Assembly (NCBI GenBank): GCA_964468545.1
Contig: CAYXTT010000002.1
Location: forward strand, 1 to 32,359
DNA: 32,359 bases
Direction of reading: 5' to 3'
DNA from: Candidatus Woesearchaeota archaeon
GTDB lineage: Archaea > Nanobdellota > Nanobdellia > Pacearchaeales > GW2011-AR1
The position numbers were made by a program, and so were the translations under genes. The notes under the pieces are model-generated. The model saw only the letters and a program-made list of their open reading frames with translations. It was not told the DNA's origin and made no database searches. Below are positions 3,329 to 32,359 of this stretch, piece by piece. Numbering within the stretch: position 1 is the stretch's first letter; every line of letters starts with the position of its first letter.

Positions 3329-4042
3329 ATGACAGAACTAGAAGTACACATCAAACCAATAGGAGAACTAGGTGTAACTCAAGCAGACTCATTTATATAC
3401 CAAAGAGTAAAAGATTTTCTACTCGGAAGAATGGGAGGAAGAAATTCGGCAGGGTACAAGACAATTATGAACAGCGGATTCGATATACAAAACGCCACAG
3501 GCTCAAGTTTACCATTTATAATAGCGGCAACAGAACTACTGGAAGAAACAAATGTTGCAACGATATTATCACTTGAAGATATAATAAAAATAATCACTCA
3601 CGGAAAAGCCAATGGCAAAAATCACTTCAAAGGAATATATGTCGATACAAACGAAGCAATACTTTATTTAAACGACAACTCCTCATTATCACTTAATTTA
3701 GCAGAGATAGCAAGAAATCAAAATAATACACCTTACGACGCAGAAAACCCAGCAAGATTTACCGGATTAAGAGTAGACAAAGCCGACAACAAAGAAGGAT
3801 ATAGGCTAATAGAAACATCAAAAACACAAATAATCACAGATCCGAGATTCTCTTATTCAAACAATGAGCAAGAAATAGATTTTAATGGAACCCCCATTAA
3901 AGTTTTCACAAAAAAAACTGGCTCGTCGAGGCTTTACGCGTACGAGGACGGGCTGTACGCCGGGGACGGCGTTCCCGCGGATTCGAGCGGCGTTGGTCGC
4001 GTGGGGTTGGTTCACGCCGAAGGCGTCGGTTCGAAAAATTAG
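3329..4042 (+). CDS. DGR variable (target) protein 1, VR at the extreme C-terminus
   Basis: 237-aa ORF with no obvious signal peptide. The last ~40 codons (GSSRLYAYEDGLYAGDGVPADSSGVGRVGLV...) are encoded by a GC-rich island repeated near the RT. Paralogous to CDS 31321..32160 (GSSLPFIIAA vs GSNLPFNVLM; G-x-SR-[LV]-Y). Confidence 0.75.
   Translation: MTELEVHIKPIGELGVTQADSFIYQRVKDFLLGRMGGRNSAGYKTIMNSGFDIQNATGSSLPFIIAATELLEETNVATILSLEDIIKIITHGKANGKNHFKGIYVDTNEAILYLNDNSSLSLNLAEIARNQNNTPYDAENPARFTGLRVDKADNKEGYRLIETSKTQIITDPRFSYSNNEQEIDFNGTPIKVFTKKTGSSRLYAYEDGLYAGDGVPADSSGVGRVGLVHAEGVGSKN
3922..4004 (+). repeat. DGR variable repeat VR1
   Basis: Aligns without gaps to 4235-4317. By hand count, 64 of 82 positions are identical over 3923-4004. 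Confidence 0.8.
4014..4026 (+). other. GC-rich hairpin just 3' of VR1 (candidate DGR target-recognition hairpin)
   Basis: ACGCC-gaa-GGCGT, starting 10 nt after the last TR-homologous base and still inside the CDS. Confidence 0.45.
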
Positions 4043-4100
4043 ATTAATATATATTTTAGAATATAATAATAACTAAAAGTCCAAAACTCTTCAAAAGATT

Positions 4101-4117
4101 CCTAGCTTGGAGCTAGG
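4101..4117 (+). other. Conserved stem-loop downstream of target gene 1
   Basis: CCTAGCT-tgg-AGCTAGG. The counterpart in cassette 2 (32185-32204, CTAACC-ttggaact-GGTTAG) keeps the ATTC...TTGGA.CT...TAGGC context but has different stem bases. Confidence 0.55.
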
Positions 4118-4234
4118 CCACACGCCTCTTTATTAGAACTCTTGAATGAGTCAGTAAAATTCAATGGCGACAACAAGTAATTGAAAATTATGAATCTTGA
4201 AGCCATGGTGGCAATTGGTAAAGAGACTATCACT

Positions 4235-4317
4235 ATCGTCGGGGCTTTACGCGGGCGAGTTCGGGCTTGTCGCCGGGTGCGGCGTTCCCGCGAATTCGAA
4301 CGACAATGGTCAAATGG
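4235..4317 (+). repeat. DGR template repeat TR1 (RT-proximal copy)
   Basis: Non-coding: it has no start codon in the VR-equivalent frame, which closes with TAG at 4320. Codons AAT, AAC, GAC, AAT, CAA and ATG at 4293-4316 correspond to VR1 GAT, AGC, GGC, GTT, CGC and GTG. All 8 mismatches there are at TR adenines. The repeat ends 16 nt before the RT ATG. Confidence 0.75.
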
Positions 4318-4331
4318 CCTAGCCAACTAGG
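4318..4331 (+). other. Stem-loop between TR1 and the RT start
   Basis: CCTAG-ccaa-CTAGG. In addition, 4316-4323 (ggcctagc) is the reverse complement of 4112-4119 (gctaggcc), so an 8-bp long-range helix could bracket the TR-containing RNA. Confidence 0.4.
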
Positions 4332-4333
4332 AA

Positions 4334-5350
4334 ATGAAAACTCACAAGAACATCTACTATAAAATCTACAAATGGGAAAACCTTCTTCTCGCCTTCTTGA
4401 AGGCGAGAAGAAGAAAATCAAAAAGAAAAGACGTAAAAGAATTCGAAGAAAACCTGATAGAAAACCTACAAGACTTACAACTCGAGCTAATGGACTCAAA
4501 CATACAAACCAAGACCACTCAAAACATTTATTCTACGAGATCCAAAAACCCGTAAAATATCCAAATCACATTTCAGGGACAGAATAATTCACCACACCCT
4601 TTGTAACATAATCGAACCAATCTTCGACAAAATCTTTATTTATGATAATTGTGCAGGAAGAAAAAACAAAGGAACATCATTCGCATTAAGAAGATTTAAG
4701 AAATTTCAAATTAAAACAACGAAGAATCTAACTTCAAGTAGTTATTGTCTAAAAGCCGATATAAAACATTACTTTGAAGAAGTCAGTCATGAAATTTTAA
4801 TTAACATTATTAAAAGAAAAATAAAAGACAAAATTGCAATACAACTAATAGTAAAGATATTAAAAAATTACCACAACAAAGAAAATGGTATGCCACTAGG
4901 AAGCTTAACAAGTCAACTCTTCACAAGTATTTATCTCAATAAACTAGATTATTTTGTTAAACATCAATTAAAAGAAAAGTACTATATAAGATACGTCGAC
5001 GATTTCCTCATATTAAATTGCTCAAGATTTAAGTTAGCATTCCTAAAAATAAAATAAAAAAATTTCTAAAAAACAATTTAAAATTAGAACTTCACAAAAG
5101 CAAATCAAAAATTATATCATTATCAAAAGTAGTAGACTTCGTAGGATTCAGAAACTACTACCACTTTAAGTTACTAAGACAAAGAAGTATAAGGGGTATG
5201 AAAAGAAAAATACAACTATTCCACAACAATCACATTCCTACAAGCGAAATCTCAGAAATATTTCAAGGATGGCAAGCACATGCAGAAATTGCCAACACAT
5301 ATAATCTAAGAGAGTGCCTAACCCAAACTTTAAAACTACCCCTTCTCTAA
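4334..5350 (+). CDS. DGR reverse transcriptase whose reading frame changes twice (possible pseudogene, assembly indels or recoding)
   Basis: Three collinear pieces. The first runs from 4334 to about 4499 in frame 2 (MKTHKNIYYKIYKWENLLLAFLKARRRKSKRKDVKEFEENLIENLQDLQLEL...). The second covers 4500-5054 in frame 0 (YKPRPLKTFILRDPKTRKISKSHFRDRIIHHTL...GMPLGSLTSQLFTSIYLNKLDYF...YIRYVDDFLIL). The third runs from about 5054-5057 to 5350, back in frame 2 (KKFLKNNLKLELHKSKSKII...VDFVGFRNYY...GWQAHAEIANTYNLR). It has an LGxxxSQ motif 4 and a YVDD catalytic motif. Confidence 0.85.
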
Positions 5351-14340: not shown

Positions 14341-17300
14341 ATGAAAAAGAGGGCAATAGTATTTACAATATTTTTATCTTCTCTAATAATACTTACCTAT
14401 TTCATTTCAGCAGATTTCACCGACGACGGAACATCAGTGCAGAATGTCACAGAATGCGGAATATTAAATACTTCTTACGCAACCTATACCCTCAACCAAT
14501 CAATGGGCTCGGGAGCAGACGGCGACTGTCTCCTAATTGCCAACGACAGCATCATCCTTGATTGCGCCGGCTTCAACATCACATATGGAAACGCAACAGG
14601 CGGGGCCGGAATCTACGTTTTTAACGAATCAGGAGAAAACGGATTCAATAACATAACAATCCAAAACTGCATCTTAATTCAAAATATAACCGGAGACGGA
14701 GATGCAGGAATTCAAATTGGAGCAAACTCAACAAACATAACACTCTACAACAACACAATCACCACACTCGGTTCAGACAGCAACGGAATCCACTTCGAAG
14801 CGAACGCCACAAACACAAACATAACCTCCAACAACATAAACATATCTGGAACCGAAGTCCACGGAATTTCATTCGAAAGCAATTCGGTCAACGCAAACAT
14901 AACCTCCAACAACATAACAACTTCAGGTATAGAATCTCACGGAATCTTTTTAGCCGACGGAAGCAATAACGTAAACGCAACTCTCAATATCATAACAACC
15001 TCTGGAGTGAATTCCTCAGGAATTAAAATTGGAGATTCTTCAATTAATGCAAGTGTAAATTTCAATGACATAACAACCTCCGGCTCAGGATTAGAGACCT
15101 GTGGAATCTATTTAGCAGAATCAGGAACCAACGCAAACATCACATCAAACACAGTCAACACATCTGGCGAAGACGCATCAGGAATTAAAATGGGCGACGA
15201 ATTATCAGGATTAGTTTATAATAACACAATTACAACTTCTGGAAATTGGAGTTTATCGAATGCAATGGGTGGAATCTGGTTAGAATCAGACACCGCCGGA
15301 ATAAACGTCAGCACAAACACAATCACAATATCTGGATATCATACTGCAGGAATCTGGGCATGGACTTGTGATAATCATTCTATCGAAAACAACATCATAA
15401 CAGCAACAGGAGAAGCGGACGGAGGAATTGTTTTATTAGACACTCAAGGAACAAACATCACATCCAACACAATCAACATCACAGGAGATTATGGCGACGG
15501 AATCTATTCCTTTAATTCGGAAAATTCCCTACTTTTCTACAACAACGTCATAACAACATCCGGAACAGAAGCTTATGGATTCAACCTCAACCAAACTTCC
15601 AACTCAAACTTCTCATCAAACAACATCACAACATCCGGAACATCAGCCTATGGAATGTTCTTCAACCAATCACACAATAACACCCTCGCAAACAACCGAA
15701 TCACAACCGGCTCATCAACCGCCTATCTCCTATACTTCACAACATCCGGAAACCAATCAATCTACGACAACATCTTCAATACATCAACAACCGGCTCCGG
15801 CATATTCATAAATAGCAGTAATCTAAACTACTTTAACACATCAGGTGCCCCATTCACAAATATAATCGGAAAAGGCTACTATGGCGGAAATTTCTGGACA
15901 AACGCAAACAGTAACGGCTATTCCGACTACTGCACAAACATCAACGACAATTACTATTGCGACTCACCTTATCGCGTCGTGTCTGGCGTCGACAGTTACG
16001 ATTATCTCCCACTCACAAACTATCATACCAACATCTCTGTTTGCGCAGCACTAAGCGTCAAAAAACGTTACACCCTAAATCAAAGTTTATCATCAAACGG
16101 AACTTGCTTTAACATCACGACAAACGGAGTTCAACTCGACCTCGCAGAACACATAATAACAGGAAACACAACCGGCTACGGAGTCAACATCACCGCCCAC
16201 AACGACACGACAATCCTAAACGGTTCAATCTCAAATTTCTCGGTCGGAATCTACGCAACATCCACCACAAACACAAACATAACTCTAACAACAATATCAA
16301 GCACGGAAAGTAATTCAAGCGCAATAACATTATCCGACGCTGACAACTCAACAATCAATTCTAACACAATCACGACCTCAGGAAACTTGTCAGAAGGAAT
16401 CTACGCAACTTCTTCTTCTTACTGTAATCTAACAAACAACAATATAACAACAACTGGTATCGGAACAACCAACTCTGGCAATGGAAGCCCAATAAATATT
16501 CTAAACTCATCAAACTATTTTCTAATCTACAACAACAGAATAAACACCACTAACGCAAACGTCGAGGGTATATACCTATCAAACGATTCCTACGGGAACT
16601 TATCCAGTAACACAATTAACACCTACGGGAACAAGTCTCACGGATTATATTTAACAACAACATCAAATAATAACAGCATAATCTCAAACATAATCAACAC
16701 GCACTACACCGGCGATATAAATCTTTATTCATTCTACGCAGGAGGAAGCTCAACAGGAAATAATATTTCATCCAACAACATTTCATCTCTGGCGAACCAA
16801 TCATTCGGTATTTACCTATCAGGACAAACAAACAACACATTCGTTTACGGGAATCGCATAACTTGCCAAGGGTACCTCGCAATCAGCCTCACGATTCTAG
16901 ATACTACCAATGCCACTACCGGACTAATAATCAGAAACAACAACATTTTAGCAAACCACTCATCACTTGGAATTGCAATCGCCACAGCTGGTTCGGTAAA
17001 CGCACTTTTCTACAACAACATTTTAAATTCAACACATGGCTCATACTTAGGAACATCTTTCAATAACTTTTATTCTGAAGACAACCTCACAAATCAATGG
17101 AACACTTCAAAAACAGCGTCGACAAACATAATCGGAAGAAGCTACATCGGCGGAAATTATTGGACAACTCCAAATGGAACCGGCTACTCCGACTATTGCA
17201 CAAACACAGACAGCGATTACATTTGCGACACCGCCTACACAATAACGGCAAATAACATCGACCGCTATCCATTAACAAACCATTTAAACACAACTACAAC

Positions 17301-17805
17301 AACAGACACAACAGACACAACATCTGGCGGTGGTAGCGACGCAGTCGCAACTTACTATCCAACAAAAGAACAACTTGCAGAAGGATACACGCTAACAATA
17401 CCAGAGAGTACCAAAGTAAAATTCTACATCGGAAACAAAAGCCACGAATTAGTAATTAATTCCATCGACAATACTACCATCAAAATAACAGTCACATCAG
17501 AACCACAAATAAAAACACTCAGAATAAACGACGAAGCAAAATTCGAACTTACCGACGATAATTTTTATGACTTCTCTGTAAAATTAGAATCAATAACAAA
17601 TTCTCAAGCAAAATTATTAATGAAAACAATATCAGAAAGTATACCAGCCAACGAACTTACCAATACACAGGAATCAAATAACGAAACACAAACAAACGGA
17701 ACTTCAAAAAACAATGCACCAATCTCCTACTGGATAACAGTTTCAATTATTTTAATTATTACCGTCGCTGTCACCGGTTATTATTATTTTAAAAAAAGAA
17801 AATAA
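14341..17805 (+). CDS. Large secreted or surface-anchored parallel beta-helix repeat protein (NosD/PbH1-like), two modules, C-terminal TM anchor
   Basis: N-terminal signal/TM segment. There are dozens of ~22-aa repeats of the type NITSNNITTSGxxxxGI and very many N-x-S/T sequons. The module end is duplicated (NIIGKGYYGGNFWTNANSNGYSDYCTN... and NIIGRSYIGGNYWTTPNGTGYSDYCTN...). A Thr-rich linker (TTTTDTTDTTSGGGS) precedes the C-terminal TM plus KKRK. Confidence 0.75.
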   Translation: MKKRAIVFTIFLSSLIILTYFISADFTDDGTSVQNVTECGILNTSYATYTLNQSMGSGADGDCLLIANDSIILDCAGFNITYGNATGGAGIYVFNESGENGFNNITIQNCILIQNITGDGDAGIQIGANSTNITLYNNTITTLGSDSNGIHFEANATNTNITSNNINISGTEVHGISFESNSVNANITSNNITTSGIESHGIFLADGSNNVNATLNIITTSGVNSSGIKIGDSSINASVNFNDITTSGSGLETCGIYLAESGTNANITSNTVNTSGEDASGIKMGDELSGLVYNNTITTSGNWSLSNAMGGIWLESDTAGINVSTNTITISGYHTAGIWAWTCDNHSIENNIITATGEADGGIVLLDTQGTNITSNTINITGDYGDGIYSFNSENSLLFYNNVITTSGTEAYGFNLNQTSNSNFSSNNITTSGTSAYGMFFNQSHNNTLANNRITTGSSTAYLLYFTTSGNQSIYDNIFNTSTTGSGIFINSSNLNYFNTSGAPFTNIIGKGYYGGNFWTNANSNGYSDYCTNINDNYYCDSPYRVVSGVDSYDYLPLTNYHTNISVCAALSVKKRYTLNQSLSSNGTCFNITTNGVQLDLAEHIITGNTTGYGVNITAHNDTTILNGSISNFSVGIYATSTTNTNITLTTISSTESNSSAITLSDADNSTINSNTITTSGNLSEGIYATSSSYCNLTNNNITTTGIGTTNSGNGSPINILNSSNYFLIYNNRINTTNANVEGIYLSNDSYGNLSSNTINTYGNKSHGLYLTTTSNNNSIISNIINTHYTGDINLYSFYAGGSSTGNNISSNNISSLANQSFGIYLSGQTNNTFVYGNRITCQGYLAISLTILDTTNATTGLIIRNNNILANHSSLGIAIATAGSVNALFYNNILNSTHGSYLGTSFNNFYSEDNLTNQWNTSKTASTNIIGRSYIGGNYWTTPNGTGYSDYCTNTDSDYICDTAYTITANNIDRYPLTNHLNTTTTTDTTDTTSGGGSDAVATYYPTKEQLAEGYTLTIPESTKVKFYIGNKSHELVINSIDNTTIKITVTSEPQIKTLRINDEAKFELTDDNFYDFSVKLESITNSQAKLLMKTISESIPANELTNTQESNNETQTNGTSKNNAPISYWITVSIILIITVAVTGYYYFKKRK

Positions 17806-24937: not shown

Positions 24938-25261
24938 ATGGAAATCAACGTAACCGACATAACTTTCAAAAAAGAAGTCATTGAAAAATCAAAAACAATT
25001 CCAGTCCTCGTCGACTTCTGGGCAGAATGGTGCGGTCCGTGCATAATATTAAAACCAATTCTTGAAAAACTCGCAAAAGAATTCAACGGCAAACTCATTC
25101 TCGCAAAAGCCGAAACAGACAAAAATCAAGAACACGCAAGCGAATACGAAGTTATGTCAATCCCATCTGTAAAACTTTTTAAAAACGGAAAAGTCGTCGA
25201 CGAATTTATCGGCGCCCAACCCGAAGCCACAATCAAGCAATGGCTTAACCAAAAACTCTAA
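24938..25261 (+). CDS. trxA: Thioredoxin
   Basis: VLVDFWAEWCGPC active site. 107 aa. Confidence 0.9.
   Translation: MEINVTDITFKKEVIEKSKTIPVLVDFWAEWCGPCIILKPILEKLAKEFNGKLILAKAETDKNQEHASEYEVMSIPSVKLFKNGKVVDEFIGAQPEATIKQWLNQKL
25203..25240 (+). repeat. Left copy of a 38-nt perfect direct repeat (inside the trx 3' end)
   Basis: aatttatcggcgcccaacccgaagccacaatcaagcaa is identical to 25836-25873. Confidence 0.9.
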
Positions 25262-25609
25262 TCACTTTATAAAAAAATCAATCTTGTCTTTCACTTGCCT
25301 GTAAAAATCTTTTTTTACCGTCGCCAAATTTTTGATAATAATTCTTTCATCAATAGTAAAAATCCTATGAGGTTTAATCCAACTCTTAAACGGTAACTTT
25401 CCCTTAGCAAAACTTCCTCTCGAAATCAGAACTCCATTCTTAGGACTATTGGAAGTAACCAAACAACAAATTTTATCCTCACCCTTCAAGTTAGAATTAG
25501 AAACAATCATCGCGGGTCTTCTTTTCACGCCAGCCAAATCAGAATAAGGAAACGGAATCAAAACAATATCCCCTTGCTCAAACATTATTCCATTCCTCAT
25601 CGACTTCAT
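25262..25609 (-). CDS. mazF: PemK/MazF-family toxin
   Basis: GDIVLIPFPYSDLAGVKRRPAMIVS...CCLVTS....G.LPFKSWIKPHRIFTIDERII. The likely start is at MFEQGD (25585), which overlaps the antitoxin stop by 8 nt. Confidence 0.7.
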   Translation of the reverse strand: MKSMRNGIMFEQGDIVLIPFPYSDLAGVKRRPAMIVSNSNLKGEDKICCLVTSNSPKNGVLISRGSFAKGKLPFKSWIKPHRIFTIDERIIIKNLATVKKDFYRQVKDKIDFFIK

Positions 25610-25808
25610 TATCCCAGTCTTTTTTCAAAACATCCTCAGACGCCAACATCGCAAGAATCCCCTCGCTGTTTTTATCACCCTTAATCAAATTGAGTTCCGC
25701 CACCTTCTGACGAATCGCCTTTCTAATAAACTCGCTCCATCTAATTTCAGAATACCTTTTCATTAAACCATAAGTTTCATCTTCGATAGACAACGTAATA
25801 TTAGTCAT
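25578..25808 (-). CDS. Ribbon-helix-helix (CopG-like) antitoxin
   Basis: ITLSIEDETYGLMKR....WSEFIRKAIRQKV, with an acidic tail. Lies upstream of the toxin gene and overlaps it. Confidence 0.6.
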   Translation of the reverse strand: MTNITLSIEDETYGLMKRYSEIRWSEFIRKAIRQKVAELNLIKGDKNSEGILAMLASEDVLKKDWDNEVDEEWNNV

Positions 25809-25835
25809 AACAAATTAAGTGGCATCACTTATTTA

Positions 25836-25873
25836 AATTTATCGGCGCCCAACCCGAAGCCACAATCAAGCAA
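25836..25873 (+). repeat. Right copy of the 38-nt direct repeat (orphan trx 3' end, would encode FIGAQPEATIKQQLN-stop)
   Basis: Identical to 25203-25240. The offset is 633 nt. Confidence 0.9.
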
Positions 25874-25894
25874 CAGCTCAACTAAAAATTATAG

Positions 25895-26212
25895 TTACAA
25901 AAATTCTCTACGATTTGAATATTCCAGTAACTCCGCTTTCGCCATTCTTAATCTATATTTATCTGTTTCAGATAATTCTCCTCCCATCGCTATCATTTCC
26001 AAAGCGAAATCATAATTTCCAAGATATTTAAATTTCTTATCATAAACTTTCAAGACGACATATCTCTCAATCATTTTTTCAATACACGATTCAGAAGGAC
26101 GAGACAATCTTCCATTACACGCTTTAATGACATATTCGATATCTCCAACTACAACTCCCATCATCGCCCTAAGACGCCCTTCATTTTTTGCCGTTTCAAC
26201 AATGTCTTCCAT
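25895..26212 (-). CDS. Hypothetical protein
   Basis: 105-aa ORF with no recognisable motif. Confidence 0.4.
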   Translation of the reverse strand: MEDIVETAKNEGRLRAMMGVVVGDIEYVIKACNGRLSRPSESCIEKMIERYVVLKVYDKKFKYLGNYDFALEMIAMGGELSETDKYRLRMAKAELLEYSNRREFL

Positions 26213-26949: not shown

Positions 26950-27023
26950 TGAGGCTGCCAAGATTTGAACTTGGGACCCCTGCCTTATCAGAGCAGTGCG
27001 CTACCTGGCTGCGCCACAGCCTC
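26950..27023 (-). tRNA. tRNA-Ile (anticodon GAU)
   Basis: Hand-folded cloverleaf: acceptor GAGGCTG/CAGCCTC, D arm GCGC/GCGC, anticodon arm CTGCT-CTGATAA-GGCAG, T arm CCAAG-TTCAAAT-CTTGG. CCA is not encoded. Confidence 0.9.
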
Positions 27024-27698: not shown

Positions 27699-29126
27699 CT
27701 AAACATAATGCTCAACACTTCCAACCAAATGCTCAAGATAATGAACCTCTCTAACAATCCCCTGCATCGGTCTAAATTCTCTAATTAAATAATTCGACGA
27801 AAACTTCCGAACATGCCTAACCTCTCTCAAAAATTTCAAACCAACAATCGCAACAAAAAATCTTCCCACAGCCGAAACAGCGAATATAAACAAAATTGGA
27901 TTCATAAACGAAACATTAATCCAAGCCAGCAACGAACCCAAACTCGCCCCGACAAACACACCAATCCCGACAATCAAATTCATATAAGTCAAACCGAAAC
28001 TTCTCTTTGGCCCGCTCACCGCATCATAAACATAATTATTCACAGCCAAATTATAACCAGCCCATCCAAACCCGCCGACAATCGATGGCACTATCAACAA
28101 ATATAATTTCATCATCAAGCCACCTCCAATAAATATCGACGCAATCCACAACAATGGACCAATCGCAATAGCCCACGAACAAATAGCCACCAATTTAATA
28201 TTTCCAAATCTGTCAGACACTTTCCCAAGCAACGGCAAAAAAATCAACTGAAAAATAACCGACGAAACCGTCACAAGTATATACCAAACATAAGAAAAAC
28301 CCAAATTTCTCAACATGTAAACCGCCCAAAACGGACCAGCAATAGCAGCGACAAAATTTAACGCCCCCATAAATAAACTAAATCGCCCAAACGGAGTTTC
28401 AAAAGATTTTCTCAAGAATTGCCAAAACGAAAAATAATCTTTCTTCCTGATTCTAATTCTCGGTTCATATTGTTTCCTCAATAAATTCAGCGACCAAATT
28501 CTAATCAAAGCCGAAAGAACAAATAAAAAACCAAACCCAAGCAAAGTAAATCCAATAACATTACCGCGAAGAACTCCAACCTCCTTCGACGCATCAAGAA
28601 TAACAGCACCAATAACCATCGTCAACACTCCAAAAAATCCAATTACCCGATTCCTTCTTGAAAAATATTCTCCTCGTTTCTCTTCGGGAACAATCGAACC
28701 CATCCACGAAAACCACGCCGGATGAGAAATTGCAGTAAGCACATAAAATAAACTAACAAGTCCGATAAAAATCCAAACCATATAAGGAACGCCAAGATAA
28801 AATAATAATCCAGTCGCAAGAATCGGAATCCAAAGCAAAATTTTTCCAAACACACCACCCAAAACTAACTCCTTCCTCGAGAATCTTTTAAGCAACTTGG
28901 CCGTTTTTAGTTGCACAATGCTCGGCAACAAACTCGTAATAGCATATAAAATTCCAACTTGCGTCGACGTCGCGTTCATAGCCAACGCAAACGGAGAAAA
29001 ATAAGACAATCCAAATCCCGACGACATCGAATCCACCGAACCCTCTCGCACACTCAAATTCAAACTCTCGTCAATTTTTTTAGCGACAATCGGATGATTA
29101 ACATTAGCCTCTTTCACCTTCCTCAT
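27699..29126 (-). CDS. MFS-type multi-pass membrane transporter
   Basis: 475 aa with about 12 or more hydrophobic helices and a central charged loop (RKQYEPRIRIRKKD). Confidence 0.7.
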   Translation of the reverse strand: MRKVKEANVNHPIVAKKIDESLNLSVREGSVDSMSSGFGLSYFSPFALAMNATSTQVGILYAITSLLPSIVQLKTAKLLKRFSRKELVLGGVFGKILLWIPILATGLLFYLGVPYMVWIFIGLVSLFYVLTAISHPAWFSWMGSIVPEEKRGEYFSRRNRVIGFFGVLTMVIGAVILDASKEVGVLRGNVIGFTLLGFGFLFVLSALIRIWSLNLLRKQYEPRIRIRKKDYFSFWQFLRKSFETPFGRFSLFMGALNFVAAIAGPFWAVYMLRNLGFSYVWYILVTVSSVIFQLIFLPLLGKVSDRFGNIKLVAICSWAIAIGPLLWIASIFIGGGLMMKLYLLIVPSIVGGFGWAGYNLAVNNYVYDAVSGPKRSFGLTYMNLIVGIGVFVGASLGSLLAWINVSFMNPILFIFAVSAVGRFFVAIVGLKFLREVRHVRKFSSNYLIREFRPMQGIVREVHYLEHLVGSVEHYV

Positions 29127-29176: not shown

Positions 29177-29247
29177 GCGTGGATAGTATAATGGTAGTAT
29201 GTAAGCTTCCCAAGCTTGAGACCCGGGTTCAATCCCCGGTCCGCGCA
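29177..29247 (+). tRNA. tRNA-Gly (anticodon CCC)
   Basis: Acceptor GCGTGGA/TCCGCGC, anticodon arm TAAGC-TTCCCAA-GCTTG, T arm CCGGG-TTCAATC-CCCGG, discriminator A. Confidence 0.85.
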
Positions 29248-31320: not shown

Positions 31321-32160
31321 ATGATAAAATTAGGAACAGCGCCAATAATTCAAGTGCCAGAACAAGAATTTGGTTTCTATAGTCGTCCGGATTTAGCAGG
31401 CAAAACTTTTTTAGAAGCATTTGAAAAAGAATTGAGACAATACAATCCAGAAACTCTAAAAAAAGCATTAAACGGAGAATTTTACTTCGACAGCGACGGA
31501 ACATTAAGAGGTTCAAATTTACCTTTTAATGTTTTAATGAATCATAAAAATCTTTTCCCCGAAGACGAACATCCTTTATCAATCGCAGAATTCGGTCAAG
31601 CATTTAACAAAAACCCAGAAGCTTCCAAAGAAATATACGCAGACACCGGGATTATAGCAAGGACACCAAACGATTATTTTTCAGAAAATATAATTAAACA
31701 AATAAAAGCAAGAGGAAAAACACCAACTCCAGAAGAACCAATAGTAATATCCAACACAGACCTAATTCCAATACAAAATAAAGAGTCCCGTTGCGGATTT
31801 GTTTACAAAATAAAAGACAGAGACGGCGAAGAATTAATAGTAGCCCCAGCATATGGAACAGCAGAAACCATAACAAAATTCACAATCTACGACGAAAGAG
31901 GAATTCCTATCCCATCCGAAAGAGGAGATAAACAAATCTGGAAAGGAGATTCTGGCGTGTCGAGAGTTTATTCTAGCTACGGCCAGGTCGTGGGCTCGGG
32001 CGACGAGCGCCTGGCGAGTTCAGGCGGCGGCGGCAGGGTAGTGGTGGGGAAGGCCAATGTTCCGCAAAATATTGTTGAAATAGAAAAGTTAGTTCAGCAA
32101 GAAGAAAAAAGAATAAAAATGGCAAAAAAAGATTTAGAAAAAAGAGTAGCAAAGTTATAA
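31321..32160 (+). CDS. DGR variable (target) protein 2, with the VR near the C-terminus followed by a coiled-coil tail
   Basis: 279-aa paralog of CDS 3329..4042. The GC-rich segment GVSRVYSSYGQVVGSGDERLASSGGGGRVVVG is repeated downstream at 32305 onward. Confidence 0.7.
   Translation: MIKLGTAPIIQVPEQEFGFYSRPDLAGKTFLEAFEKELRQYNPETLKKALNGEFYFDSDGTLRGSNLPFNVLMNHKNLFPEDEHPLSIAEFGQAFNKNPEASKEIYADTGIIARTPNDYFSENIIKQIKARGKTPTPEEPIVISNTDLIPIQNKESRCGFVYKIKDRDGEELIVAPAYGTAETITKFTIYDERGIPIPSERGDKQIWKGDSGVSRVYSSYGQVVGSGDERLASSGGGGRVVVGKANVPQNIVEIEKLVQQEEKRIKMAKKDLEKRVAKL
31954..32049 (+). repeat. DGR variable repeat VR2 (3' limit inferred from the GC-rich island)
   Basis: 31954-32008 aligns without gaps to 32305-32359, with 48 of 55 positions identical by hand count. 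The rest of the TR lies beyond the window. Confidence 0.7.
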
Positions 32161-32184
32161 AAGCCTAAATTTATTCAAAAAATT

Positions 32185-32204
32185 CTAACCTTGGAACTGG
32201 TTAG
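32185..32204 (+). other. Conserved stem-loop downstream of target gene 2
   Basis: CTAACC-ttggaact-GGTTAG, homologous in position and context to 4101-4117. Confidence 0.5.
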
Positions 32205-32304
32205 GCTACATGTTGATTAATTTATAATTCAATCACAACAATTAGTAGTTTGCGCGAAAATTGAAGTGATGGTGATTTACTTTCAATTAATCAACTATAT
32301 AGTC

Positions 32305-32359
32305 GGCGTGTCGAGAGTTTTTTCTGCCTACGACCAGGTCGCGGACTCGGGCAACGAGC
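32305..32359 (+). repeat. DGR template repeat TR2 (partial, truncated by the window edge)
   Basis: GAC, GAC and AAC codons here correspond to GGC, GGC and GAC in VR2 (A to G at 32333, 32345 and 32353). It is preceded by an AT-rich leader homologous to the one upstream of TR1. Confidence 0.6.

Follow-up and report, generated by a model that had tools for sequence, protein, structure and literature searches.

Between the valS and aRF1 genes of a DPANN archaeon, a pair of GC-rich repeats lies beside a gene related to reverse transcriptases (RTs), which raises the question of whether this locus is a DGR and, if so, whether it still works. The window analysed here is a 32,359-nt stretch of contig CAYXTT010000002.1 from a Candidatus Woesearchaeota archaeon. 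A first-pass annotation had placed a target gene, a template repeat (TR) and an RT between valS upstream and aRF1 downstream, and had read the cassette as a DGR. Our analyses upheld the neighbourhood, the ancestry and the architecture, but not a working cassette, since the RT gene contains frameshifts and half of the TR adenines are gone. The order target-TR-RT was likewise retained; however, the RT is not a single ORF, being split over three frames, and the spacer, which had been overlooked, is an RT-16 RNA. The features of this cassette (cassette 1) and of a second one (cassette 2) are collected in Table 1.

Table 1. Features of the two cassettes, with positions numbered from the first letter of the window.
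Feature	Positions	Strand	Description or basis
T1, target gene of cassette 1	3329..4042	+	ORF, 237 aa
VR1	3923..4004	+	codons 199-226 of T1
GC-rich hairpin ACGCC-GAA-GGCGT	4014..4026	+	5-bp stem, GAA triloop, read from sequence; putative target-recognition hairpin
RT-16 RNA (Rfam RF03019), cassette 1	4101..4235	+	85.5 bits; fills the VR1-TR1 spacer
Helix, 5' strand GCTAGGCCA	4112..4120	+	within RT-16; predicted to pair with the TR 3' end
TR1	4236..4317	+	non-coding; 12 A in 82 nt
Eroded tract of TR1	4242..4285	+	G (8) or T (4) at 12 sites that formerly had A; 3 further changes at other bases
Helix, 3' strand TGGCCTAGC	4315..4323	+	last 3 nt of TR1 and 6 nt of flank
RT1, DGR-type RT pseudogene	4334..5350	+	three-frame translation, homology
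Frameshift 1	4492..4493	+	1-nt insertion, extra G: ATGGAC against ATGAC in both intact relatives
Frameshift 2	5045..5049	+	1-nt deletion in an A-run: 5 A against 6 in the ortholog
T2, target gene of cassette 2	31321..32160	+	279 aa; distant T1 paralog
VR2	31954-32041		within T2
RT-16 RNA, cassette 2	32184..32303	+	83.2 bits
TR2	32305..32359	+	cut by the window end; continues in contig L009

The GC-rich repeat that had been reported at a spacing of 313 nt was borne out as an ungapped direct repeat of 82 nt that is 78% identical, with a GC content of 0.70 in VR1 and 0.63 in TR1 against 0.39 for the window. The match is imperfect. VR1 occupies the 3' end of the target gene, whose reading frame continues 38 nt beyond it, and the ORF map confirmed that the second copy is non-coding and ends 16 nt ahead of the RT1 start codon (ATG at 4334). 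An ungapped scan of both strands of the 32-kb window found no further match to either copy at 62% identity or above. The search for a remote VR of TR1 by the same type of scan recovered only VR1, and an inverted match at 27926-27949 (24 nt, I19), which falls within an MFS transporter gene and does not exceed chance, was rejected. In TR 4293-4314, all eight mismatches fall on TR adenines (P = 6.6e-4 given 10 A in 25 positions), and the codon changes listed for them earlier are exact. On the other hand, TR 4242-4279 contains ten additional mismatches; each falls on a G or T of the TR, never on A. Adenine-specific substitution therefore holds in TR positions 45-82 only, and over the full repeat 10 of the 18 mismatches are at bases other than A. 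The 3' end of VR1 carries two candidate cis elements. The first is a fixed VR/TR difference, CGCGTGG in the VR and CAAATGG in the TR, as in nanoarchaeal DGRs; the homology stops at 4004/4317, with no long BPP-1-type IMH. The second is the GC-rich hairpin, located 10 nt past VR1 and within the T1 gene. Among 54 related cassettes, 21 have a stem of at least 4 bp with a GRA triloop no more than 60 nt past the VR, and the stem sequences vary while complementarity is kept.

The affiliation of the RT was examined with a conceptually repaired protein of 341 aa. Residues 2-330 align end to end with the 328-aa RT of 8ub7_A (E 1.8e-45), a much closer relationship than that to the group II RT LtrA (E 5e-19) or to a PDB chain named 'retron-type' RT by its depositors (E 1e-17). 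The cryo-EM entries 8ub7-8ube are, we take it, those of the bRT-Avd-RNA complex of the Bordetella phage BPP-1 DGR. RT1 matches Pfam RVT_1, and its middle frame carries the motifs LGSLTSQ and YVDD that had been noted before; judged by motifs and E-values, it falls into the DGR group. In addition, a syntenic Woesearchaeota relative (L002/L011) has the arrangement valS-target-TR-RT-aRF1 with an intact 339-aa RT, and all 13 of its 13 mismatches are at adenine. Across the family, 52 related DPANN loci with target, TR and RT show 8-19 adenine mismatches (1 in L021) and 0-3 at other bases. It is hardly conceivable, then, that the repeat is a plain segmental duplication beside an unrelated group II intron or retron RT. 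The top NCBIfam model for RT1 is indeed a group II intron RT/maturase, yet its 133 bits fall well short of the cut-off of 300; RT1 is nearest to the RT of 8ub7, adenine-only mismatches occur in the ortholog and likewise in about 50 relatives, no intron RNA domains and no maturase or endonuclease extension were seen, and the Rfam search returned RT-16 only. None of the observations that the first-pass annotation had named as refuting a DGR was made. When VR1 is compared with the TR of the ortholog, 15 differences are at adenine sites and two are not, both of the latter being common to TR1 of the window. The VR1 segment is hypervariable among the four close T1 homologs, the remaining protein being 65-71% identical. 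As judged by sequence comparison, cassette 1 is a DGR by descent and architecture, an assignment based on the RT group, the 3'-terminal position of the VR in its gene, the non-coding TR directly upstream of the RT, the lack of Avd, the GAA hairpin, the ortholog and about 50 relatives. DGRs of DPANN archaea are already known, and cassette 1 is a further member of this known clade (Woesearchaeota/Pacearchaeota/Nanoarchaeota).

The RT gene itself is disrupted. Homology to RTs runs in frame 2 over 4334-4491, in frame 0 over about 4494-5044 and again in frame 2 up to the stop at 5348-5350, and the +1 change at 4492 and the -1 change at 5045-5049 that interrupt it were placed by DNA alignment against two intact relatives. 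Both indels are also present in an independent ENA MEGAHIT contig (L010), which differs by 8 SNPs and 0 indels over 6.7 kb. On the strength of the sequence data, the frameshifts are real. The opposite reading takes cassette 1 to be whole and active, ascribes the frameshifts to sequencing errors or to bypass during translation, and puts the non-A mismatches down to a low-fidelity RT; it is scarcely tenable. One indel does lie in an A-run and the two together restore the original frame, but the G insertion is outside any long homopolymer, the 550 nt between the indels are stop-rich in the starting frame, all other genes of the 32-kb window are unbroken, and the L010 contig was assembled independently from another sample. 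Similarly, differences other than A-to-N occur in 23% of surveyed DGRs, with up to 11 per target, but relatives with near-identical RTs have only 0-3 non-A mismatches. The repaired RT1 is 81% identical to its intact ortholog, with identities of 0.85/0.90/0.69 at the three codon positions; this pattern is like that of valS and thus indicates that the inactivation is recent. A long-dead pseudogene was considered and rejected, as RT1 exceeds the ortholog by only three substitutions at conserved columns. A minority of cells may carry an intact RT1 or a varying VR1. VR1 is identical in two assemblies of the population.

The second sign of decay is in the template itself. We compared TR1 with the TRs of three relatives (L002, L094 and L091). 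In positions 1-57, 12 of 14 adenines have changed, against 3 of 43 other bases (Fisher 5e-8), whereas none of the 10 adenines in positions 58-82 has changed (5' versus 3' part, Fisher 7e-5). All three related TRs have A at eight of the 12 lost sites, L094 having G at two and L091 at three. Because the related TRs retain A at most of these sites, the loss in TR1 is probably derived, and parsimony over the three TRs favours an A-rich ancestral state. The adenine fraction of TR1 is now 0.146, below both the family median (0.305) and the family minimum (0.175), and this loss of half of the adenines explains the non-A mismatches between VR1 and TR1. The replacing bases have the spectrum G8:T4:C0, compared with 67:30:3 (399:178:15) in the VRs of the family, and four of the 12 equal the present VR1. 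Positions 58-82 and RT-16 are 95-96% identical to the ortholog. The tract also contains G25T and G33T, which are changes off adenines. A metagenome scan for further orthologous TRs, with the TR 3' flank as the pattern, returned four loci only, among which the window's own contig was absent.

Could the adenines have been lost by ordinary point mutation, either through neutral drift at codons for variable residues or through selection that hard-wired favourable residues in a stable environment? We consider this quite improbable. Theory does predict selective loss of TR adenines (bioRxiv 10.64898/2026.02.18.706561), the L094 TR has two isolated A-to-G changes, and divergence of the window from the reference relative is appreciable, at 31% of valS third codon positions. 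However, against that very divergence as the neutral expectation, the rate in the block is far too high (P = 3.7e-5), and drift was rejected as the cause. The changes are, moreover, confined to one block (86% of A, against 0% in the adjoining block), oppose the AT bias of the genome and are A-to-T in one third of cases, as in the DGR spectrum, while hard-wiring of the current allele is at odds with the mere 4/12 agreement with VR1. To an assembly chimera, with VR-variant reads threaded into the TR locus, we give almost no credence: although VR and TR are similar over 82 nt and metagenome assemblers can collapse repeats, the aberrant tract covers about 45 nt between TR-specific flanks, a length that single reads would span. 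JGI and ENA (k141) assemblies, made from different samples, contain the same sequence, and cassette 2 shows the same phenomenon. An overwriting of TR1 by mutagenised sequence is the explanation we favour. A single event is unlikely, since a loss of 12/14 is more than it should give at the family's rate of 52% per adenine (P = 0.01), and we therefore assume repeated events.

The spacer between VR1 and TR1 provides a further part of the architecture. Both copies of RT-16 exceed the RF03019 gathering score of 50 bits over model positions 1-158, and the 3' end of the cassette 1 copy adjoins the first base of TR1. A match was obtained at 38 of 40 related loci and, with the cassettes of the window, in 40 of 42; it ends in most of them at the TR start or a few nt off, and in one up to about 40 nt upstream. 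RT-16 of cassette 1 is 94.8% identical to that of the ortholog, against 83% for valS DNA. Our analysis predicts a 9-bp helix that joins RT-16 to the TR 3' end. Across 52 loci, 86.2% of cells are paired (69.0 ± 1.4% in shuffles; 0/500) and the covariation score is 0.596 (0.292 in shuffles; 0/500), with compensatory changes at eight of the nine pairs and only 18-49% pairing in slid registers. The pairs 'TGG' with 'CCA' and 'TAG' with 'CTA' between TR end and RT-16 occur in 46 of 50 distinct sequences, and the start of RT-16 (first 40 nt) pairs with its own TR-downstream flank at -21.3 kcal/mol, compared with -14.5 kcal/mol across loci. A hairpin at 4101-4117, considered as a VR-associated cruciform, is stem P1 of RT-16, which travels with the TR and not with the VR, and was rejected in that role.

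The first-pass annotation had found no avd-like accessory ORF, and our searches agreed, in the cassette as well as among small neighbouring ORFs. The + strand between target and RT contains no ORF of at least 50 aa, a Pfam search with 10 small ORFs from the window and related loci gave no Avd-type match, and cassette 1 has no avd, HRDC, MSL or CH1 accessory gene. Given that 29% of surveyed DGRs (architecture A) do without an accessory gene, the missing Avd is not disqualifying. RT-16 appears to form the 5' arm of the RNA in archaeal DGRs that lack Avd. Cassette 1 would then consist, in order, of the target gene with its C-terminal VR and triloop hairpin, the RT-16 RNA, the TR and the RT. In intact members, by analogy with the Bordetella phage system, an RNA of RT-16 and TR is most likely reverse transcribed with misincorporation opposite adenines, and the cDNA replaces the VR.

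T1 falls into an orphan family of DPANN DGR targets, the invariant motifs of which are GSN, Y.D and, at the C-terminus, GRV. T1 has only four close homologs; a family profile search collected 86 proteins, all named ones being 'hypothetical' and none having a Pfam domain, and Pfam and NCBIfam searches with T1 and T2 gave no match. A C-type lectin fold displaying the VR, which had been proposed for inspection, was not found. AlphaFold models of T1 (pLDDT 63.5) and T2 (pLDDT 69.7), predicted from an 81-sequence alignment, have low confidence in the VR segment of both, and two Foldseek searches of the PDB with them yielded no match at E<0.8 (best E 0.88 and 2.3). In HMM searches of PDB sequences, the T1-family profile gave a single chance-level match (UvrC 1yd6, E 0.65), and an AvpA-like target of a sister cassette gave no match.

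Cassette 2 offers an internal comparison. Its target T2 is 24% identical to T1 (E 1e-3), and the cassette is complete in contig L009, which belongs to the same population (1 SNP in 8.3 kb) and encodes an intact 339-aa RT2 after TR2. RT2 is 64% identical to the RT1 ortholog. Nine of the VR2/TR2 mismatches are at A and four are not; relative to the L013 and L014 TRs, TR2 has lost about nine adenines, again in the 5' part, leaving an adenine fraction of 0.216. Cassette 2, with its intact RT, shows milder erosion than cassette 1. A different case is L021, in which the RT is intact and the TR is VR-like, 1 nt from its own VR, which indicates that conversion occurs naturally in this clade.

The presence of RT2 raises the possibility that cassette 1 is still used, RT2 acting in trans on the RT-16/TR1 RNA and diversifying only the 10 remaining 3' adenines. 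We think this unlikely. RT2 is intact in the same population, both cassettes have RT-16 and share its helix to the TR end, and the clean A-to-N mismatches are confined to the 3' part of TR1; but the helix sequences of cassettes 1 and 2 are unlike, and two assemblies that are otherwise 8 SNPs apart agree fully in VR, TR and RT-16. The 95-96% conservation of RT-16 and TR1 58-82 relative to the ortholog would suit such use, but recent inactivation, as seen in the codon-position pattern of RT1, explains it equally. As an observation in itself, the conservation of RT-16 and the 3' third of the TR fits recent death and in-trans use by RT2 equally. Unless RT2 serves in trans, cassette 1 is a frozen, recently dead DGR.

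Taken together, we regard it as probable that cassette 1 is an Avd-less DPANN DGR whose TR was overwritten by mutagenised cDNA or by a VR allele and which died recently. Two point changes specific to the TR1 lineage, at positions 30 and 75, are also present in VR1, indicating that TR-to-VR transfer went on once this lineage had separated from the sequenced relative. Adenine-mutagenised sequence would then have replaced the 5' 57 nt of TR1, probably on more than one occasion, and removed 12/14 adenines; it may have come from cDNA that recombined with the DNA of the TR or, by conversion, from a VR allele, and the data fit both. A last partial homing would have carried the new TR into VR positions 45-82, giving the eight clean A-to-N mismatches, and would have left the older 5' part of VR1 untouched, hence the ten non-A mismatches against the eroded TR1. 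RT1 acquired its +1 and -1 frameshifts, which are recent. We infer the order of TR1 erosion and RT1 loss from the pattern of shared bases. More tentatively, and with somewhat less than even confidence, we propose that such decay is a self-inflicted ratchet, in which the mutagenised product, as cDNA or VR allele, repeatedly overwrote the 5' part of both TRs, stripped them of adenines and aged the element until, in cassette 1, the RT was lost, and that the RNA of this Avd-less clade may be permuted, RT-16 clamping the TR 3' end through the helix in place of the Bordetella Sp RNA and Avd.

The value of cassette 1 thus lies in its state and context, because together with its intact syntenic ortholog it forms a natural before-and-after pair of DGR death. 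The order of events suggested by this pair is tract-like adenine loss with the element's own signature, retreat of homing to the matching part, and loss of the RT. TR self-mutation has so far been described in engineered systems and in theory, and a natural case, one of three with TR2 and L021, would make the lifespan of DGRs studyable in genomes. Our results could also explain, by TR erosion, one class of non-A-to-N mismatches that surveys put down to RT infidelity, and they suggest that adenine-only DGR detectors would miss or misjudge eroded cassettes. For the orphan RNA family RT-16 they suggest a concrete role, and the predicted helix is testable by mutation. If the ratchet proposed above is true, the template repeats of natural DGRs are not invariant.

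Among known systems, the nanoarchaeal DUSEL4 DGRs (Paul et al. 2015, PMC4372165), likened here by their description, share the order target-TR-RT, the small DPANN genomes and the presence of several cassettes in each. The targets are in both cases orphans without detectable C-type lectin homology, and the target gene contains, just past the VR, a GC hairpin closed by a GRA triloop (PMC4372165). The DUSEL4 VR ends are of GGGGT type and the TR ends of GGAAT type (GGGT/GAAT difference; PMC4372165), a feature matched in this clade; the ends in cassette 1 depart from this, being CGCGTGG and CAAATGG. Unlike the DUSEL4 cassettes, cassette 1 has a frameshifted RT, a TR with half of its adenines gone and, in place of a small basic ORF between target and RT, the RT-16 RNA.

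The BPP-1 DGR (mtd-avd-TR-brt) resembles cassette 1 in the full-length homology of its RT (IGSLTSQ/LGSLTSQ, Y[MV]DD), in the flow from TR to VR with adenine-specific changes and in the hairpin past the VR. The RNA flanks of the TR pair in both systems, as the avd:Sp duplex in BPP-1 and as RT-16 with the TR 3' flank here. The large structured RNA, however, lies 3' of the TR in BPP-1 (Sp region, Rfam RT-10) and 5' of it here (RT-16). BPP-1 has Avd and cassette 1 lacks it; here the RT start codon follows the TR after just 16 nt, the TR-VR homology does not extend beyond the last variable codon, a long IMH being absent, and the T1 and T2 models, low in confidence at the VR segment, gave no match to Mtd-like C-type lectins. 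The original description of the RT-16 motif gave no role and tied only RT-10 to a DGR (Weinberg et al. 2017, PMC5737381), and the Rfam model RF03019 is without the TR 3' end pairing found here.

Finally, synthetic DGRs in E. coli undergo TR self-mutation with preferential dA loss (bioRxiv 10.64898/2026.07.21.739853). The engineered and the theoretical cases (bioRxiv 10.64898/2026.07.21.739853, 10.64898/2026.02.18.706561) resemble ours in a preferential adenine loss that shrinks the explorable sequence space. In contrast to them, cassette 1 is a natural chromosomal element in which the loss is tract-like and biased to the 5' part, and in which the RT has been lost as well.

Cassette 1 is best read as a recently inactivated diversity-generating retroelement (DGR) whose template has been partly overwritten, and not as a working one. 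The first-pass annotation had read 3329-5350 as a DGR cassette; its class assignment was right, but the reverse transcriptase gene (RT1) is frameshifted and the template repeat (TR) has probably been overwritten in part.

The core of the cassette is an ungapped direct repeat of 82 nt whose copies are offset by 313 nt and 78% identical; when the two strands of the window were scanned with either copy at a threshold of at least 62% identity, nothing further matched. Both copies are GC islands, with a GC content of 0.70 in the variable repeat (VR) and 0.63 in the TR, against 0.39 in the window. In TR 4293-4314, all 8 mismatches fall on TR adenines (P = 6.6e-4, given 10 A in 25 positions), and the adenine-only mismatches and codon changes reported earlier for this part were exact. 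That account, accurate in its quoted facts, left unstated another 10 mismatches in the 5' two-thirds (TR 4242-4279), every one at a TR G or T. These 10 non-A mismatches fall on the first or second base of NNC codons: TAC, GAC, TAC and GAC in the VR stand opposite GGC, TTC, GTC and TGC in the TR. Because the mismatched codons are all NNC, VR and TR each look like a diversified version of AAC codons in this part.

Features of the two cassettes and of the rest of the window (window positions unless stated otherwise)
Feature	Position	Description
VR (copy 1)	3923-4004	Near the end of CDS 3329..4042 (target gene T1, 237 aa)
Hairpin	4014-4026	5-bp GC stem, GAA triloop; within T1, 10 nt downstream of VR
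RT-16 RNA	4101-4235	Rfam RF03019; 85.5 bits, gathering score 50; ends one base before TR
9-bp helix	4112-4120 with 4315-4323	GCTAGGCCA with TGGCCTAGC; TGG = last three bases of TR
TR (copy 2)	4236-4317	Non-coding; ends 16 nt upstream of the ATG at 4334
TR, 5' part	TR positions 1-57	A changed 12/14; non-A changed 3/43
TR, 3' part	TR positions 58-82	A changed 0/10; non-A changed 1/15
RT1 frameshift 1	4492	One extra G, ATGGAC vs ATGAC; DNA alignment with two intact relatives
RT1 frameshift 2	5045-5049	One A missing from run; DNA alignment with two intact relatives
Putative surface-protein ORF	14341-17805	1154 aa
63-nt direct repeats	25203-25265 / 25836-25898	87% identical
PemK-toxin/RHH-antitoxin pair	25262-25835	Between the two 63-nt repeats
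tRNA gene	26950-27023 (-)	Rfam scan
tRNA gene	29177-29247 (+)	Rfam scan
T2	31321..32160	Target gene of cassette 2
VR2	31954-32041	Variable repeat in T2
RT-16 RNA, cassette 2	32184-32303	Rfam RF03019; upstream of TR2
TR2	from 32305	Cut by window end; completed from L009
RT2	in L009, beyond window	Intact, 339 aa

Searching with the RT alignment yielded 80 loci, chiefly from Woesearchaeota, Pacearchaeota and Nanoarchaeota MAGs, on which a simple TR/VR detector was run, and 52 cassettes of the clade were counted. In these the TR ends ~20-25 nt upstream of the RT start, each cassette carries 8-19 adenine mismatches (the exception, locus L021, has 1), and non-A mismatches number 0 in 35 loci, 1 in 11, 2 in 5 and 3 in 1. 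Judged by these counts, the family is a canonical DGR family, in which cassette 1 stands apart through its 10 non-A mismatches. Across the 52 related loci, ~52% of TR adenines are changed in the VR, with G at 399 of the mutated sites, T at 178 and C at 15, A-to-C being nearly absent.

Only four close homologs of T1 were found; in their alignment the VR-equivalent segment is hypervariable, and the remainder is 65-71% identical. The homolog P0002, from the MAG 'Candidatus Woesearchaeota archaeon SRP178699_co1_15', occurs on 17 contigs from several samples in the order valS, target, RT, aRF1, as in the window, with an intact RT gene of 339 aa. The offset at its locus is likewise 313 nt, and 13 of the 13 VR/TR differences lie at TR adenines. 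Its VR is identical, within the same protein, across assemblies from at least 8 samples (L001-L008, L092, L093, L095), so that the consensus assemblies show no sign of ongoing diversification, though the RT is intact.

Comparison of the window TR with those of three related loci (L002, L094 and L091) revealed that it has lost adenines from its 5' part. Adenine and non-A sites changed to different extents within positions 1-57 (Fisher 5e-8), and adenine sites differ between the 5' and 3' parts (Fisher 7e-5). All three related TRs have adenine at 8 of the 12 changed sites, with G at two in L094 and at three in L091; since the relatives keep A at most of these sites, the loss is probably derived in the window's lineage. 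Drift was considered as the cause, taking as neutral rate the third codon positions of valS, 31% of which differ between the window and L002. Drift was rejected, as it accounts for neither block: 12/14 far exceeds this rate (P = 3.7e-5), and 0/10 falls short of it (P = 0.024). The lost adenines were replaced by G in 8 cases, T in 4 and C in 0, a composition whose multinomial probability is 0.17 if the family VR spectrum applies and 0.0009 if the spectrum is uniform. The window TR now holds 12 A in 82 nt (0.146), against a family median of 0.305 and minimum of 0.175. Set against the L002 TR, the window VR shows 15 differences at adenines and two elsewhere, at positions 30 and 75; the window TR carries both of the latter. 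The window VR thus behaves as expected of a copy made in the normal way from the ancestral TR, and the changes at positions 30 and 75 arose in the TR of this lineage and passed from there into the VR.

We propose a history in four steps. First, homing went on normally after the split from L002, as shown by the changes at positions 30 and 75 common to TR and VR. Second, the TR up to position 57 would have been overwritten by adenine-mutagenised sequence, either donor cDNA or a VR allele. At the family's 52% per adenine, 12/14 or more losses have a probability of 0.01 in one event and of 0.34 to 0.80 in two or three; because a single event is this improbable, we infer that the overwriting was repeated and ratchet-like. 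Third, the last homing event would have carried the new TR into VR positions 45-82, leaving the older VR 5' part in place. Positions 45-82 of the VR match the TR at all non-A bases, the new G47, G49 and T50 included, and differ at 8 adenines only, and the older 5' part has 10 non-A differences from the eroded TR. For DGRs it is established that the 5' limit of cDNA integration varies and depends on homology. Fourth, the RT would have been lost after this last event. The model is consistent with every repeat position. VR/TR conversion does seem to occur naturally in the clade, L021 being a case.

In L021, a Nanoarchaeota MAG locus with an RT intact from 3001, the TR (2891-2970) is VR-like, with 14 A in 80 nt and a single AAC left of the usual AAC-type codons. 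It equals its VR (2508-2587) bar one base and the fixed 3' end, which looks like a recent VR-to-TR gene conversion. At L091, whose target is 65% identical to T1 (VR 456-537, TR 770-851), the TR resembles cassette 1 in its 5' part, but at its 3' end (CTCGGAATAG) and in the flank beyond it is of a different TR/RT subtype. Because the two parts differ in subtype, recombination between cassettes is suggested.

Cassette 2, at the window end, covers 31321-32359 and continues at 10001-12116 of L009, a contig of the same population (1 SNP in 8.3 kb), where its remainder was read. TR2 and VR2 differ by 9 adenine and 4 non-A mismatches, the non-A ones all in the 5' 40%. Comparison with L013 and L014 shows a loss of ~9 adenines from TR2, in its 5' two-thirds, and its A fraction of 0.216 lies under all relatives except L021. 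Both cassettes of a related MAG (L011, L013) are A-rich. Taken together, the losses in TR1 and TR2 show 5'-biased adenine erosion in two cassettes of one genome.

RT1 is not a single ORF: the homologous reading frame is frame 2 at its start (4334), changes to frame 0 at ~4492 and back to frame 2 at ~5045, and ends at 5350. The frameshifts are real. An independent assembly (ENA contig ERZ27248953, MEGAHIT k141) differs from the window by 8 SNPs and 0 indels over 6,714 nt, and the same RT fragments are called as genes on it. The conceptually repaired RT1 (341 aa) carries Pfam RVT_1, and its residues 2-330 align end to end with the RT of PDB 8ub7 (328 aa) at E 1.8e-45, as against 5e-19 to 1e-17 for group II intron and depositor-named 'retron-type' RTs; it is thus much closer to the 8ub7 enzyme, in line with the first reading. 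Judged by its sequence, 8ub7 is the Bordetella phage DGR enzyme bRT. Codon-position identities to the ortholog are 0.85/0.90/0.69 for RT1 and 0.85/0.94/0.69 for valS, and RT1 has only three private substitutions (N191S, A198T and G269V) at columns conserved in at least 90% of relatives, N191S falling within the LGNLTSQ motif. For these two reasons RT1 was under purifying selection until recently, and its inactivation is recent. TR1 may still be used in trans by RT2.

Of 40 related loci, 38 have an RT-16 match, which in most of them reaches the TR start or stops a few nt away (in one locus, up to ~40 nt before it), and the stretch from TR end to RT start is complementary to the RT-16 start. The duplex energy of the first 40 nt of RT-16 with its own TR-downstream flank averages -21.3 kcal/mol, against -14.5 across loci (Mann-Whitney 4e-7). 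Over 52 loci, the 9-bp helix is paired in 86.2% of cells (shuffles 69.0 +/- 1.4%, 0/500), with a covariation score of 0.596 (shuffles 0.292, 0/500); registers slid from it are 18-49% paired. Compensatory changes occur at 8 of its 9 pairs, and CCA/UGG and CUA/UAG switch jointly in 46 of 50 distinct sequences. This covariation establishes, at the level of sequence, a helix between RT-16 and the TR flank. In cassette 1 the helix has 9/9 pairs and RT-16 is 94.8% identical to its ortholog, and both are intact. Stem P1 of RT-16 shares its 3' arm with the helix in part, so that the two would be alternatives or form a junction. P1 (CCTAGC/GCTAGG, 4101-4117) and the TR-downstream flank (CCTAGCCAACTAGG, 4315-4330) could fold locally or pair with each other, so that the TR RNA may adopt either of two conformations.

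A profile search with the T1 family recovered 86 proteins, none with a Pfam domain; T1 thus belongs to an orphan family, in which the motifs GSN, Y.D and, at the C-terminus, GRV are invariant. Inspection showed no hydrophobic N-terminus. The AlphaFold models of T1 and T2 (pLDDT 63.5 and 69.7) reach good confidence only for a central alpha/beta core, the VR being poorly modelled. Foldseek gave no PDB match to them below E 0.8, and sequence profiles against the PDB gave nothing convincing, only UvrC (1yd6, E 0.65). Display of the VR on a C-type lectin fold, for which the first-pass annotation had advised looking, is not supported by these models, though it may still hold.

Elsewhere in the window, the 63-nt repeats are copies of a thioredoxin gene 3' end, as if the PemK/RHH module had been inserted with duplication of that end. 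The 1154-aa ORF has many degenerate repeats (period ~78 nt, NITSN..I.TSG motifs), a hydrophobic N-terminal segment and a C-terminal membrane anchor, and probably encodes a large surface protein.

The DGR class is already known, and cassette 1 is a further member. It offers a natural instance of a TR eroded at its adenines, for which an intact syntenic locus can serve as comparison, and such erosion accounts for clusters of non-A mismatches. Moreover, the analysis gives the orphan RT-16 RNA a place: in archaeal DGRs that lack Avd, it appears to form the 5' arm of the DGR RNA. The paper describing RT-1 to RT-19 gave RT-16 no function and tied RT-10 alone to a DGR, between the TR and RT of phage BPP-1 (PMC5737381). 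As noted at first reading, no Avd-like gene was found among the cassette ORFs or, against Pfam, the small neighbouring ORFs; accessory genes are absent from 29% of surveyed DGRs.

Two features recall nanoarchaeal DGRs, in which IMH TGGGGT is opposed to IMH* TGGAAT and GRA-triloop hairpins lie inside the target gene (PMC4372165). The repeat 3' end likewise differs here, being GGGT(A/G) in the VR and GAAT(A/G) in the TR of the family (CGCGTGG and CAAATGG in cassette 1), and a stem of at least 4 bp with a GRA triloop stands at the place of the T1 hairpin in 21 of 54 cassettes, with differing stem sequences. In BPP-1, the priming site is positioned by pairing between the RNA segments on either side of the TR, much as RT-16 pairs here with the TR 3' flank. 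By this analogy the helix probably fixes the start of cDNA synthesis, which would explain why TR-VR homology stops at the helix.
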